DNA of 64,000 nucleotides from Gammaproteobacteria bacterium (GCA_029244925.1 JAQWQE010000047.1:1515-65514); one strand, 5' to 3'. Shown: positions 20,291 through 27,559, numbered from the stretch's first letter. Made by a program: numbers and translations. Notes: generated from the letters alone by a model not told the origin.

Positions 20291-20584
20291 ATGAGGGGTG
20301 AATGGTATAAAAGATCTTTCTTAATATTTCTTATGGTATTTATTTCAGGACTATTTGAGATAGACATTCATTTCAAGAAACGAGAATATTTCAAGAAATA
20401 TCAATCTTTGATTCAAGATAAGCTTCGATTAGAGATTGATTGGAGAAAGATACAGATTGATCTTTCAGAAATCTCTTCAGGTCTATCCTTAGAAAAAGAT
20501 GCTGAGACAAAAGCAAAGATGACTATCTTGGACCCATCCTTAGCAAAAATTGTAATATTGAATGAGCAAGAAACAAAAAAATAA
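20291..20584 (+). CDS. ftsL: cell division protein FtsL
   Basis: 97 aa with one N-terminal TM helix followed by a coiled-coil-like segment. Lies between rsmH and ftsI and overlaps the ftsI start. Confidence 0.7.
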   Translation: MRGEWYKRSFLIFLMVFISGLFEIDIHFKKREYFKKYQSLIQDKLRLEIDWRKIQIDLSEISSGLSLEKDAETKAKMTILDPSLAKIVILNEQETKK

Positions 20585-22250
20585 AAATAAATTTATCAGG
20601 AATCGTTTCCTTTTTCTTTCTTTAATCCTGATTACTTCATTGGGTTTGTTGCTATCAAGATCTTTTTATCTTCAGTACATTGAAAAAGATTATCTGAATA
20701 CCGAAGGAGAAAAAAGACATATTAAGCTTGAAAGAATTGCTTCCAATAGAGGTAACATTTATGATCGTAGATCCACTCTATTAGCAGTAAGTACTCCTAT
20801 TTATAATGTTGTTGTGGACCCAAAGAAGTTCATAGAATCTAAAATATATAGTCAACAAATTCAAATACTAAGTGAAATTCTTTCAATGAATGTAAAAGGT
20901 ATTGATAGTGCAATTAAAAAACGACCCAATCGAAGACATTTGATTATTAAAAAAGAAATAACCGATAATCAAATTGAGCAAATTCGTTCAAATAAATGGA
21001 GAAATTATCTCTATCTTGAGAAAAGCTATAAGCGTTTTAATCCGTCTGGCGAAGTAACGGGTCAGTTTTTAGGCTTCACGGATCTTAACGATAGAGGACA
21101 AGAAGGACTTGAGTATATGTTGAATGATTATTTAGTGGGTACAGATGGTATCAAGAAAGTACTGAAGGATAGAAAGCAAAATGTTGTTCGAGATTTAGAA
21201 TTCCTTCAAGCTGCTAAAGATGGGAACGATATTTATACTAGTATCGATCTACGTATACAATTTATTGCTCATAGGGCATTGAGTAATGGATTAAAGAATT
21301 CTAAAGCTAAAGCTGCTTCAGCAATTGTTCTAGATATCAGAACAGGAGAGATCCTAGCTATGGTTAACCAGCCTTCTGCTGATCCTAATGATCGAAGTTC
21401 AAGACAGGCAAAATACTTTAAAAATAGAGTTGTTACCGATCAATTTGAGCCAGGTTCTACATTTAAACCCTTGATAGTGGCTACCGGTATTGAGAATAAA
21501 ATATTCAGTTCTCAAGATACAATAGATACGACTCCATTTTATATTGGAAAGAAATTGATCGGAGAGGATAACCGTTGTTCAAGCCAAAAAGTAACACCTG
21601 AAAAGATATTGGTTAATTCTTGTAATGCTGGTACAGCTAGAATGTCTTTGCAAACTGAAAGTAAATTATTTTCTCAAATGCTCAATAATCTAGGTGTAGG
21701 AAGAGTTACAGCTTCAGGTTTTCCTGGCGAGGCCTCAGGTACCCTTGATGGTAACTATGATCGCTGGAGAGACATTAGGCGAGCATCGCTTTCATATGGA
21801 TATGGAGTGGATGTAACTCTATTGCAATTGGCGAGTATTTATTCTGTTTTAGCTAACAAGGGAATTAAAAATCATGTAAGCATTGAAAGAATAGAGGGAG
21901 AACCTGTTTCAGAAAGAGTTCTTTCTGAAGAAACAGCAAAGAAATTATTACTTATGCTTGAACAGGTAGTCGAAAATGGAGTTAGAAGAGCTAAGGTTAA
22001 TGGTTATAGAATTGGAGGCAAAACTGGAACAGTTCAAATTTATTCTTCAGGCTATTCAAATAAATCTCATAATGGAATATTTGTCGGAATTGCACCAATT
22101 AGTGAACCTAGGATTGTAACAGCAGTTATAGTCAATGAACCAGGTGGCGATCAGTATTATGGAGGGCAAGTTGCAGCTCCTATATTTTCATCTATAGCTT
22201 CTGCCTCACTAAGAATATTAGGTATTGCACCTGATAAGGTTAATAATTAA
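20562..22250 (+). CDS. ftsI: peptidoglycan D,D-transpeptidase FtsI (PBP3)
   Basis: 562 aa. N-terminal TM, RGNIYDR, and transpeptidase motifs STFKP, SCN (here NSCN) and KTGT. Confidence 0.92.
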   Translation: MSKKQKNKNKFIRNRFLFLSLILITSLGLLLSRSFYLQYIEKDYLNTEGEKRHIKLERIASNRGNIYDRRSTLLAVSTPIYNVVVDPKKFIESKIYSQQIQILSEILSMNVKGIDSAIKKRPNRRHLIIKKEITDNQIEQIRSNKWRNYLYLEKSYKRFNPSGEVTGQFLGFTDLNDRGQEGLEYMLNDYLVGTDGIKKVLKDRKQNVVRDLEFLQAAKDGNDIYTSIDLRIQFIAHRALSNGLKNSKAKAASAIVLDIRTGEILAMVNQPSADPNDRSSRQAKYFKNRVVTDQFEPGSTFKPLIVATGIENKIFSSQDTIDTTPFYIGKKLIGEDNRCSSQKVTPEKILVNSCNAGTARMSLQTESKLFSQMLNNLGVGRVTASGFPGEASGTLDGNYDRWRDIRRASLSYGYGVDVTLLQLASIYSVLANKGIKNHVSIERIEGEPVSERVLSEETAKKLLLMLEQVVENGVRRAKVNGYRIGGKTGTVQIYSSGYSNKSHNGIFVGIAPISEPRIVTAVIVNEPGGDQYYGGQVAAPIFSSIASASLRILGIAPDKVNN

Positions 22251-22312
22251 GAACTAAATATTAATCATTCATATAGAATAATAAAGTATTGTATTACCAC
22301 AAAGGATAAGAA

Positions 22313-25746: not shown

Positions 25747-26623
25747 AATCACTAAAAAAATCAAAGGTCAGTCTCTTTTCAATGAGCCACTATCTAAATA
25801 CACGTCATGGAAAGTTGGCGGGCCGGCAGATATTTTCTTTATCCCCCAAAGTCGCAATGACTTGTCTGACTTTCTGAAATCAAACCATGATAAGCCCATT
25901 ACATGGTTAGGTAATGGAACTAATATTCTTGTTAGGGATGGCGGTATTAGGGGTGCTGTTATTGCAACAAAAAAATTTCTGAATGAGATTAAGAAAGAAG
26001 AGCATAATGCTTGTAGAGTCGAGGTAGGAGCTTCATGTATGGATTTAGCATTGTTTGCTGAGAAGAATGAATTAGGTCCAGCAGCATTCTTTTCTGGGAT
26101 ACCTGGATCAATCGGAGGGGCTCTAGTAATGAATGCAGGTTCTTTTGGTCATGAAACATGGGATTTTGTGGATTCAGTCGAGGTCATTGACGAAGAAGGA
26201 GTTATACATAACTTAAACCGAAAAGATTTCAAAGTTTCCTATAGAACAGTCAAATGCCCCTTTCCCCTCTGGTTTGTATCTTGCCTGATGAAATTTTCTG
26301 AATCTGAAACAACCACCAAATCTGAATTGAAGGAATACCGTGATCAGAGGCTTAAAACACAACCTCTTAATGAGGATACTTGTGGCTCAGTTTTTAAGAA
26401 TCCTGAAAAAGGACATGCTGGAGCTCTAATAGAAAGAGCTGGCCTTAAGGGACATAGAATTGGTGGCTGTTCAATATCAAACAAGCATGCAAATTTCATC
26501 GTGAATGAAGGAAGTGCCACATCAAAAAATATAGAAGATTTAATTAAGCATGTGCAAAAAGCAGTTAAAAAAAAACATAATATAGACTTAGAAACTGAAG
26601 TTCGAATCCTTGGAGAGGATTAG
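25730..26623 (+). CDS. murB: UDP-N-acetylenolpyruvoylglucosamine reductase MurB (short type)
   Basis: 297 aa. FAD-binding region TSWKVGGPAD...LGNGTNILV, GIPGSIGGALVMNAGSFG, and CGSVFKNP...AGLKG. Confidence 0.9.
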   Translation: MCILIEITKKIKGQSLFNEPLSKYTSWKVGGPADIFFIPQSRNDLSDFLKSNHDKPITWLGNGTNILVRDGGIRGAVIATKKFLNEIKKEEHNACRVEVGASCMDLALFAEKNELGPAAFFSGIPGSIGGALVMNAGSFGHETWDFVDSVEVIDEEGVIHNLNRKDFKVSYRTVKCPFPLWFVSCLMKFSESETTTKSELKEYRDQRLKTQPLNEDTCGSVFKNPEKGHAGALIERAGLKGHRIGGCSISNKHANFIVNEGSATSKNIEDLIKHVQKAVKKKHNIDLETEVRILGED

Positions 26624-26626
26624 ATA

Positions 26627-27559
26627 ATGAGCTTAAAAGAAGAAAATGAAGATACTTTTGGCAAAGTAGCCGTTCTTTATGGAGGTCATTCTTCAGAAAG
26701 AGATATTTCTCTAATTACTGGTAAAGCAGTGCATGAAGCATTACTTAATTGCACTATAGATGCACATCTAATTGATACTAGGGATGTGTTTATTGATCAA
26801 TTGGTTCAAGAAGATTTTACATCTGCTTGGATTGCTCTCCATGGGTCTGATGGAGAAGATGGAAAAATACAAAGCGTACTTAGTTTATTAGGTATCAAAT
26901 ATACAGGGGCTAATACTTTAAGCTGTTCAATGACTATGAATAAGCTATTTTCAAAAAATATTCTTATTTCGAATGGCTTCCAAACTCCTGATTTTGTTCT
27001 TATAGATGATGAAAAAGACTATGAGCTTATTGTAAATAGATTAGAAATACCTTTTGTTATGAAGCCATGTTCTCAAGGTTCTAGCATCGGAGTATTCATT
27101 ATTAAAGAGAAGAAAGATTTTAAAGAAAAATTGAAAGAGCTTTTGCAATTTAACGATTGGATTATTGCAGAGAAATATTACAAAGGTTCTGAATAAACAG
27201 CAGGATTGTTAAATGGTGAGGTATTACCATTGGTAAAAATTAATGCTAGTAATGAAGAATTTTATAATTATGAAGCTAAGTATCTTAGCGAAGATACTTC
27301 ATATATATGTCCAAGCCAATTAGATCAAAATATAGAAAGCATCATTAAATAAACTTGTATAAATGTTTTTAATTTATTTAATATCAATAGCTGGGGCCGA
27401 TAGGATTTTTATATTAATGATGATAATCAACCTGTTTTTCTAGAACTTAATACTGTTCCAGGCATGACTTCACATAGTTTAGTGCCAATGGCTGCAAAAG
27501 AAGTGGGTATTAATTTTGATAATCTATGTTTAGAAATATTAAGAACTAGCATTGATTAA
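26627..27559 (+). pseudogene. ddl: D-alanine--D-alanine ligase reading frame interrupted by three in-frame stop codons (TAA 27194, TAA 27350, TAG 27401), with no frameshift
   Basis: My own translation of frame 2 runs gaplessly along E. coli DdlB (311 codons): VAVLYGGHSSERDISL, IALHGSDGEDG, PFVMKPCSQGSSIG, FYNYEAKYLSEDTSYICP, WGR*DF and [21 protein letters not shown]. The ORF track shows only the first 189 codons. Confidence 0.85.

Follow-up and report, generated by a model that had tools for sequence, protein, structure and literature searches.

Does a marine gammaproteobacterium whose division and cell wall (dcw) cluster contains no Mur ligase gene still make the stem peptide of its peptidoglycan, and if so, from what? 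The question is raised by the metagenome-assembled genome G000, of which a stretch of 64,000 nucleotides (the window) was analyzed together with the rest of the assembly and with its relatives. We found that the missing ligase genes lie elsewhere in this genome. In most of its family, genes for three of the four ligases were not found, and gene content suggests that the peptide may be salvaged from the walls of other bacteria.

Dismantling of the dcw cluster

Genes of the cluster were assigned by ORF coordinates and by Pfam and NCBIfam matches, with the following result (window coordinates).

11882..13138, plus strand: murA, UDP-GlcNAc enolpyruvyl transferase (TIGR01072, 570.6 bits against a cut-off of 392.7; from the genome search)
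17676..18167, plus strand: mraZ, first dcw gene (TIGR00242, 142.6 bits against a cut-off of 98)
18187..19320, plus strand: ftsZ, moved to second place in the cluster (Tubulin and FtsZ_C domains; position common to all family loci)
19356..20285, plus strand: rsmH (mraW; PF01795, E 1.4e-100)
20291..20584, plus strand: ftsL (PF04999)
20562..22250, plus strand: ftsI, PBP3 (PBP_dimer and Transpeptidase domains)
22251..22312, no strand: 62-nt spacer, the murE-murF slot in same-order outgroups (ORF coordinates and outgroup clusters)
22313..23392, plus strand: mraY (Glycos_transf_4 and MraY_sig1)
23393..23420, no strand: 28-nt spacer, the murD slot in same-order relatives (ORF coordinates and outgroup clusters)
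23421..24578, plus strand: ftsW (PF01098, E 2e-91)
24571..25746, plus strand: murG (N- and C-terminal Glyco_transf_28 domains)
25730..26623, plus strand: murB, overlapping murG by 17 nt (FAD_binding_4 and MurB_C)
26627..27559, plus strand: ddl, with three in-frame nonsense codons (from the sequence; starts 3 nt after murB)
27552..28310, plus strand: ftsQ (POTRA_1 and FtsQ_DivIB_C)
28329..29558, plus strand: ftsA (TIGR01174, 440 bits)
29645..30559, plus strand: lpxC (TIGR00325, 381 bits)

The canonical proteobacterial order is mraZ-rsmH-ftsL-ftsI-murE-murF-mraY-murD-ftsW-murG-murC-(murB)-ddl-ftsQ-ftsA-ftsZ-lpxC. The locus agrees with it in order and strand for mraZ, rsmH, ftsL, ftsI, mraY, ftsW, murG, murB, ddl, ftsQ, ftsA, and lpxC, but the four Mur ligase genes have been cut out, with spacers of 62, 28, and 0 nt in their place, and ftsZ lies between mraZ and rsmH, the other head and tail genes being present in order. 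As ftsZ has moved away, lpxC directly follows ftsA. The first-pass annotation had reported the slots of murE-murF (between the ftsI stop and the mraY start), of murD (between mraY and ftsW), and of murC to be empty, and this is what we observed: the murC slot is closed by the overlap of murG with murB, which is followed after 3 nt by ddl. None of the ORFs in the cluster has a Mur-ligase domain in Pfam or NCBIfam, and the six Mur_ligase_M matches of the genome are all on other contigs. The annotation had also placed the membrane-step genes, murA, and murB together in the packed cluster, which applies to the membrane-step genes and murB, but not to murA, located about 4.5 kb upstream.

The family comprises 20 marine planktonic species, all represented by metagenome-assembled genomes that are 59-95% complete; none is closed. 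The reduced layout is common to all 15 family genomes in which the cluster is assembled, and for this reason it is a lineage trait rather than a local accident, the outcome that the annotation had tied to its being shared by close relatives. In the five same-order outgroups whose complete cluster was read, the arrangement murE-murF-mraY-murD-ftsW-murG-(murC) is retained, and murC is in place between murG and murB in all three of the fully read outgroups whose contig extends that far. In the remaining seven outgroups, Mur-ligase genes adjoin mraY by coordinates. The cluster was dismantled in the family ancestor, with murE, murF, murD, and murC leaving their slots and ftsZ moving behind mraZ.

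Ligase genes elsewhere in the genome and the state of ddl

A profile search of the whole genome supported the suggestion that the ligases have been collected elsewhere, as all are intact on contigs C14 and C79 and score above the NCBIfam cut-offs. On C14, murE, murD, murC, and dapF form one operon (MurE, TIGR01085, 454 bits against a cut-off of 257; MurD, TIGR01087, 376 against 212; MurC, TIGR01082, 486 against 335). The murF gene is solitary on C79 (TIGR01143, 329 against 289) at a site conserved across the family, and mpl, encoding the recycling ligase, is on C54 (TIGR01081, 485.8 against 388.7). Both murF and mpl have one syntenic site each in both genera of the family. The proposed MurC-Ddl fusion does not exist: MurC has 470 amino acids and reaches 321 bits with NF011171 (cut-off 1015), matching its MurC half only, the profile search of G000 gave no fusion of any Mur ligase, and the only ddl is the copy in the window.

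The operon is part of an island of about 10 kb, in which murE-murD-murC-dapF stands back to back with dapB-dapA-dapD-lysA and a gene for an AstE-like deacylase, flanked by an aldo-keto reductase gene on one side and a rhodanese gene on the other. The operon is present in G000 and its sister species G007, and the island was seen in three independent assemblies. Omega values of 0.16-0.18 for murE, murD, murC, and dapF indicate purifying selection. G000 has, on paper, both options, de novo synthesis of the stem peptide and re-use of wall peptides, and with its de novo genes it would not be bound to salvage. For G000 alone, the altered cluster is less striking, the genes being relocated and ddl probably broken.

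The interruption of ddl noted earlier was found again. Within a single reading frame, the gene has three in-frame stops (TAA at positions 27194 and 27350, TAG at 27401) but is free of indels, and each stop lies one base substitution away from a codon for Tyr, Glu, or Leu. The interruption was seen in G000 only, and ddl is intact in ten relatives, two of them at 90-91% identity. Lineage-specific changes in the gene amount to 23 non-synonymous and 12 synonymous, compared to 8 and 12 in G002, the closest relative. G000 has no second ddl, its other ATP-grasp matches being carboxylase-type proteins of 403-1068 amino acids, and an exact look-up of the truncated Ddl of 189 amino acids in the protein collection gave no match. 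On these data, ddl of G000 is probably a recent pseudogene. Among the supply enzymes of this genome, MurI and Alr were likewise not found, and the broken ddl fits neither a de novo nor a salvage route. An artefact of assembly or consensus, with an intact gene in the living cells, is a less likely explanation that still carries some weight. Pentapeptide synthesis should be impossible in a cell that has no Ddl and no Alr, the intact genes of the ten relatives point the same way, and other family assemblies contain obvious errors (murB of G002, frameshifts in G016). Against an artefact stand the nature of the defects, which are base substitutions rather than indels, the lack of a second ddl, and the excess of non-synonymous changes, which is expected under relaxed selection.

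Stem-peptide and recycling genes across the family

MurC, MurD, and MurE are held to be essential in wall-bearing bacteria and Mpl to be a dispensable recycling enzyme (PMC3060825). In profile searches, MurE, MurC, and DapF were each found in 2 of the 20 family species, their genes being absent from the other 18. Among the 17 genomes covered by a Mur-ligase domain search, those without murE and murC also gave no murD-grade match, and outside G000 and G007 the Mur_ligase_M matches were MurF, Mpl, and FolC only. DapA scored above the cut-off in 3 of 20 species and LysA was found in one of five tested, while profile searches of the 20 family genomes detected no MurI, no Alr, and no S66-type LdcA (Peptidase_S66). 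The island-bearing clade A has murD and no murI. A divergent MurI was considered within the Asp/Glu racemase superfamily; the only match, a weak one, was a protein of about 230 amino acids (window positions 59125-59796) whose distribution does not track the island, and it was rejected. By contrast with the genes that were lost, murA (five of five tested), murB, mpl, murF, ddl, mraY, murG, ftsW, and ftsI are kept in the relatives wherever they were looked for.

Mpl occurs in all 20 genomes, above the TIGR01081 cut-off in 18 and split or truncated in the other two. Its best PDB match is Psychrobacter Mpl (3HN7), and in every pair tested omega was 0.06-0.13 for Mpl and 0.10-0.29 for MurF. Directly upstream of mpl, every genome has a gene for a protein of 175 amino acids, conserved but without a match to any family. 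AmpG (TIGR00901) scored above the cut-off in 19 of 20 genomes, and AnmK and NagZ were present in five of five tested; G000 has mpl, ampG, nagZ, and anmK. One Amidase_2 protein per genome, of 314 amino acids and with a signal peptide, was found in five of five relatives tested and, by similarity, in G000. The signal peptide suggests an AmiD-like rather than a cytoplasmic AmpD enzyme; no cytoplasmic AmpD-type amidase was seen in the family genomes. The genes oppA-oppBC-oppDF follow mnmG in all 12 genomes in which mnmG is assembled, a region unassembled in G000. No candidate for an outer-membrane importer emerged.

This set resembles the recycling pathway of Escherichia coli, which consists of import by AmpG or MppA-OppBCDF, AmpD/AmiD, LdcA, and Mpl (TIGR01081; structures 3HN7 and 3EAG). 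Shared with it are an Mpl equivalog, AmpG, an OppA/MppA-like binding protein with OppBCDF, Amidase_2, NagZ, and AnmK, and, as predicted for the family, the passage of the Mpl product UDP-MurNAc-tripeptide to MurF. Unlike E. coli, the family has no LdcA, and the only amidase found is secreted. To our knowledge, recycling supplements the essential MurC, MurD, and MurE and can be dispensed with in E. coli and in every characterized organism, whereas 18 of the 20 family species have neither MurC nor MurE, and no MurD-like match where this was tested. In these species, Mpl-dependent recycling would have no parallel route and would depend on supply from outside. Mpl is known to ligate tri-, tetra-, and pentapeptides (PMC3060825), freed wall peptides are imported by MppA/Opp, and re-use of tetrapeptides is toxic to E. 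coli lacking LdcA (PMC10622912).

From the gene content of these metagenome-assembled genomes we infer that Mpl, fed by imported wall peptides, provides the sole supply of UDP-MurNAc-tripeptide in most of the family. Wall fragments of other bacteria would reach the periplasm, where the signal-peptide-bearing Amidase_2 enzyme would free peptides for uptake by the OppA/MppA-type ABC importer or AmpG; Mpl would then join L-Ala-D-Glu-mDAP to UDP-MurNAc, and MurF would add D-Ala-D-Ala, the product of Ddl. Within the family, only the island-bearing clade would still have a peptide synthesis of its own. The joint explanation, combining ancestral dismantling of the cluster, relocation of the ligase genes in G000 and G007, and Mpl-dependent salvage in most relatives, is the one we favor and consider rather probable. 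Opinion is evenly balanced on its strongest form, according to which most species cannot make the stem peptide, D-Glu, meso-DAP, or D-Ala and grow only on wall peptides shed by others and attached by Mpl, an obligate "murein-peptide auxotrophy" in free-living cells, with the murEDC-dapF/DAP island of G000 as the family's last de novo route. The first-pass annotation had raised a remodelled pathway and, as an alternative, a scavenging lifestyle. Both appear to apply to most relatives, which lack murC, murD, and murE and keep mpl; in G000 the ligase genes are merely relocated.

Literature searches turned up no account of this lineage, nor of free-living bacteria that lack MurC, MurD, and MurE and possess Mpl. 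Tannerella forsythia is known as a MurNAc auxotroph without MurA and MurB, which scavenges the wall sugar via AmgK/MurU and makes the peptide de novo. The family would resemble it in keeping the late wall steps and depending on wall fragments of other bacteria for an early precursor, but it has MurA and MurB for the sugar nucleotide and would scavenge the peptide instead. In Chlamydiae, the supply of D-amino acids is reduced, and DapF doubles as glutamate racemase (NCBIfam NF038284, bifunc_DapF). Like them, the family has no MurI and no Alr, keeps MurD (in clade A), MurF, and Ddl, and has dapF linked directly to mur genes. However, Chlamydiae retain MurC to MurF, in contrast to the island-less species, and the island DapF reaches only 90 bits against the NF038284 cut-off of 350.

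If true, this proposal would reverse the usual view of the pathway, as a free-living family would keep the membrane machinery, MurA, MurB, MurF, Ddl, and Mpl and drop MurC, MurD, MurE, MurI, Alr, and the DAP pathway. In seawater, peptidoglycan peptides would be a shared public good, which is a clear example of "Black Queen" dependency, and the wall-derived D-amino acids of marine dissolved organic matter would be tied to a specific consumer. It might also explain the group's resistance to cultivation, and island-bearing and island-less clades would offer a natural comparison.

Alternative explanations and the history of the island

Plain relocation would mean that the whole family synthesizes the peptide de novo via MurC, MurD, and MurE, the gap in 18 species being a variable region systematically missed by metagenome assembly or binning. 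Such gaps exist: 8 of 20 genomes, among them the three of clade A, have no assembled yidC-mnmE-mnmG region. G002 lacks the island together with the neighboring ccmF, so that the region is simply missing in that assembly, and in G008 the DAP genes are at another site, which means that the location can vary. Nevertheless, we regard this explanation as very unlikely. Six island-less genomes are 90-95% complete and none has murC, murD, murE, or dapF, nor was LysA found in the four in which it was sought; murI and alr, normally at separate loci, are missing in 20 of 20; and contigs of G001, G006, G010, and G015 cross the syntenic site without the island, with other DNA in its place. Moreover, when 5.8 billion proteins were searched, the identities to MurC dropped from 78% to at most 46% with nothing between, and the best match outside belonged to the canonical dcw cluster of another lineage. 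Synthesis without Mur enzymes appears somewhat less improbable. Here, the island-less species would build the free peptide with unrelated enzymes, e.g., of the ATP-grasp type or other peptide ligases, and Mpl would attach it, with no fragments from outside. The conserved Mpl fits a free-peptide route equally well, and the 175-aa protein encoded upstream of mpl is a point in its favor. On the other hand, the searches gave no source of building blocks (murI, alr, and dapF are missing, and genes of the DAP pathway were found in just 3 of 20 species), neither mpl nor murF has a ligase-like gene linked to it, and genomes of about 1.4 Mb retain ampG, opp, the secreted amidase, nagZ, and anmK.

Compatible with salvage is a different history of the island, in which nothing of murC, murD, and murE was left in the ancestor and horizontal transfer brought them back into clade A; we hold this to be possible, although doubtful. 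Both histories require two events on the species tree, and at the corresponding sites of island-less genomes no remnants of island genes were visible, only a MOSC-like gene of about 200 amino acids. MurE groups with a low-GC Cysteiniphilum sequence and not with its own order, in a tree resolved only to the level of Gammaproteobacteria, and the MurD tree is dominated by long-branch attraction. MurC, on the contrary, falls inside the clade of all nine same-order MurC sequences (SH-aLRT 88), though on a very long branch, and the vertically inherited MurF is equally divergent from the outgroups (26-29%). No donor-like sequence above 46% identity emerged from the 5.8 billion proteins, and in a tblastn comparison with about 100 named dcw loci, all were at an equal distance (MurC 41-47%). 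GC and GC3 of the island are the genome's own. Its dS between G000 and G007 is 0.7-1.5, the same as at the mpl and murF loci, so that its minimum age is that of clade A. Given this match in dS, we discarded the idea of an island that has diverged further than the remaining genome; it is the flank on the ccmF side that is unusually similar.

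Location of the Mur ligase genes in the source genome

The source genome G000 (1.58 Mb in 85 contigs, 79% complete, about 35% GC) carries the dcw cluster on contig C66, whose positions 1515-65514 form the window. The cluster genes were named from ORF coordinates together with Pfam and NCBIfam scans.

Genes of the dcw cluster (positions in the window)
murA: 11882-13138, outside the cluster, about 4.5 kb upstream of mraZ
mraZ: 17676-18167
ftsZ: 18187-19320, between mraZ and rsmH
rsmH: 19356-20285
ftsL: 20291-20584
ftsI: 20562-22250
mraY: 22313-23392
ftsW: 23421-24578
murG: 24571-25746
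murB: 25730-26623
ddl: 26627-27559, a single frame with TAA 27194, TAA 27350 and TAG 27401
ftsQ: 27552-28310
ftsA: 28329-29558
lpxC: 29645-30559, directly after ftsA

The first-pass annotation had reported that the Mur ligase genes are missing from this cluster, and the spacers on which it relied were found as described (ftsI-mraY 62 nt, mraY-ftsW 28 nt, a 17-nt overlap of murG and murB, murB-ddl 3 nt). A whole-genome search of G000 revealed six genes with a Mur ligase middle domain, none of them on C66, which confirms the absence. The suggestion that the ligases are collected elsewhere also held, with murE, murD and murC on contig C14 and murF on C79, but none of the Mur ligases of G000 is a fusion, whether of the proposed MurC-Ddl kind or any other.

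Mur ligase-domain genes of G000 and the gene island on C14
murE: C14, in tandem with murD and murC; NCBIfam 454 bits (cut-off 257)
murD: C14; NCBIfam 376 bits (cut-off 212)
murC: C14, followed by dapF; NCBIfam 486 bits (cut-off 335)
murF: C79, solitary; NCBIfam 329 bits (cut-off 289)
mpl: C54; NCBIfam 486 bits (cut-off 389)
folC: C73; named by NCBIfam
murE-murD-murC-dapF operon: C14 2115-7227, plus strand
five genes facing this operon: C14 7229-11931, minus strand; transcribed order dapB, dapA, dapD, lysA-like decarboxylase, AstE/AspA-like deacylase

The island, roughly 10 kb long, is flanked by MOSC, aldo-keto-reductase and tauD genes on one side and by a rhodanese-to-ccmF stretch on the other. 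A second function is conceivable for the dapF gene beside murC, but its score falls far short of the bifunctional model. The AstE/AspA-family deacylase gene (L007:7229-8356, on C14) occupies the place expected for a DapE-type desuccinylase and is a candidate for a non-orthologous desuccinylase or deacetylase. Its homologue in the relative G008 (L132:18143-19000) adjoins arginine biosynthesis genes.

Distribution of the reduced cluster and of wall-peptide genes in the family

The family was represented by 20 species genomes of 1.1-1.5 Mb from two genera. The reduced layout, including ftsZ behind mraZ, was present in each of the 15 family genomes whose cluster could be assembled and is thus a lineage trait and not a local anomaly, the two outcomes between which a comparison of close relatives had been proposed to decide. 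In five fully read genomes of the same order outside the family, murE-murF precedes mraY and murD comes next after mraY, and murC follows murG in all three whose contig extends that far. According to their coordinates, seven further outgroups of the order have Mur ligase genes directly beside mraY. The order ftsA-ftsZ-lpxC is kept by the same-order outgroups, and ftsZ lies between mraZ and rsmH in every family genome examined. Since the reduced layout is common to the family, and since murF has a single syntenic site across the two genera, as does mpl, the break-up of the cluster dates to the ancestor of the family.

Genes for de novo synthesis of the wall peptide are rare in these genomes. 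In counts that all derive from incomplete metagenome assemblies with systematic gaps, MurE, MurC and DapF were each found in 2 of 20 genomes (G000 and its relative G007), DapA scored above the cut-off in 3 of 20, and LysA was found in one of five tested. MurI, Alr and LdcA (S66) were detected in none of the 20, for MurI including the two genomes with MurD. Outside G000 and G007, matches to the Mur ligase domains were limited to MurF, Mpl and FolC; the searches pass a first-pass filter, with which matches at the level of FolC were still picked up in every genome. Six genomes without the island are 90-95% complete. In four relatives (G001, G006, G010, G015) a contig runs from ccmF through the rhodanese gene to the reductase gene without the island, whose place is filled only by a MOSC-like gene for about 200 amino acids, and no island remnants were visible at this site. 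The yidC-mnmE-mnmG-opp-rsmG-parA region is absent from all three assemblies of the clade formed by G000, G007 and G002 and from five others. The genes of this region are normally universal, and their absence probably reflects a systematic gap in assembly or binning.

On contig C1 of G008 (L132 8608-19000), dapB-dapA-dapD-lysA is followed by argF, argG, an argA/B-like gene, argC and argH. This locus differs from that of the island in G000, and G008 lacks murEDC and dapF. Retention of amino acid biosynthesis islands seems to be patchy in the family.

Authenticity and history of the island

Three independent assemblies carry the island: G000, G007 and a contig from ENA. Between G000 and G007, omega is 0.16-0.18 for murE, murD, murC and dapF. 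The dS values of the island (0.7-1.5) equal those of the mpl and murF loci and its GC3 is that of the genome, indicating that the island is at least as old as its clade. The ccmF-to-rhodanese flank and tauD show a dS of only 0.28-0.48 between the same genomes (L007:12110-16853 and 93-689 versus L133/L022), which suggests recent recombination in the flanks. Near the true N-termini of murE and murD (L007 about 2133 and 3640; L022, L170), ATG, GTG and TTG are all absent, and automatic gene calls shorten both proteins. In all three assemblies the likely initiation codons are an ATC for murE and, six bases downstream of AAGGA, an ATA for murD, both of them conserved. Purifying selection on the two N-terminal regions (omega 0.15 and 0.12) shows that they are translated.

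In a tree of nine dcw-locus proteins the second genus is basal, and the island-bearing clade, (G007,(G000,G002)), groups as sister to all other members of the first genus. Two events are needed on this tree in either history, retention of the island and two losses, or a loss and a later regain. MurC of G000 and G007 forms a very long branch within a clade that includes all MurC proteins of the order (SH-aLRT 88), MurE groups within a broader clade of Gammaproteobacteria, and the tree of MurD is not reliable. Among 5.8 billion proteins searched, identity to MurC was 95, 91-93 and 78% and then, with nothing between, at most 46%; the named matches at this last level are all from Gammaproteobacteria, and the best outside match lies in a canonical dcw cluster. 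MurF is a fast-evolving, still constrained enzyme, with 26-29% identity to outgroups, 38-47% within the genus (its neighbours 77-92%) and an omega of 0.10-0.29 (murF loci L008, L011-L027). Because the vertically inherited MurF diverges likewise, retention of the island genes with fast evolution is favoured over regain from these sequence comparisons.

Salvage genes and the probable decay of ddl

Genes for salvage and late steps are widely kept. Mpl was found in 20 of 20 and AmpG in 19 of 20 family genomes, MurF scored above the cut-off in every genome tested, and MurA, NagZ, AnmK and an Amidase_2 protein were each present in five of five. The Amidase_2 protein has a clear signal peptide and is therefore predicted to act outside the cytoplasm; no cytoplasmic amidase was seen in the five genomes searched for it. 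In each of the 12 genomes with an assembled mnmG, this gene is followed by a complete oppA-oppB-oppC-oppDF operon, whose binding protein is nearest to the OppA and MppA models. Immediately upstream of mpl, all family genomes examined carry a gene for a 175-aa protein without Pfam or NCBIfam match (L009:5518-6045).

Mpl joins L-Ala-D-Glu-mDAP to UDP-MurNAc, tetra- and pentapeptides being used more slowly, and is dispensable in the bacteria studied (PMC3060825). Freed wall peptides are imported by MppA/OppBCDF (PMC10622912), and AmpG is known from the literature as importer of anhydromuropeptides. In E. coli lacking LdcA, re-use of tetrapeptides is harmful (PMC10622912). Judged by gene content, species without the island would not make D-Glu, mDAP or the tripeptide, so that import would be required and their stem peptide would come from outside; re-use of their own wall would not permit net growth. 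By the same measure, G000 has both a de novo and a salvage route. We found no description in the literature of this lineage or of free-living bacteria that carry Mpl and lack MurC, MurD and MurE.

The interruption of ddl noted in the first pass is real in the sequence of G000, and its three nonsense codons (window 27194-27403) occur in this genome only; ten relatives have an intact ddl. A single base separates each stop from the codon that G002 and G007 have there (Tyr, Glu or Leu), and non-synonymous changes are in excess on the G000 lineage, with 23 lineage-specific non-synonymous and 12 synonymous changes versus 8 and 12 in G002. No second ddl copy was found in G000, and alr is likewise absent. 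The decay of ddl in G000 thus looks genuine and recent. Other damaged genes were seen in G002, whose murB (L109 10000-10874) has two +1 insertions, and in G016 (L121), with frameshifts in ftsZ, ftsW, murB and ddl; these defects are probably sequencing or assembly errors and not gene decay.
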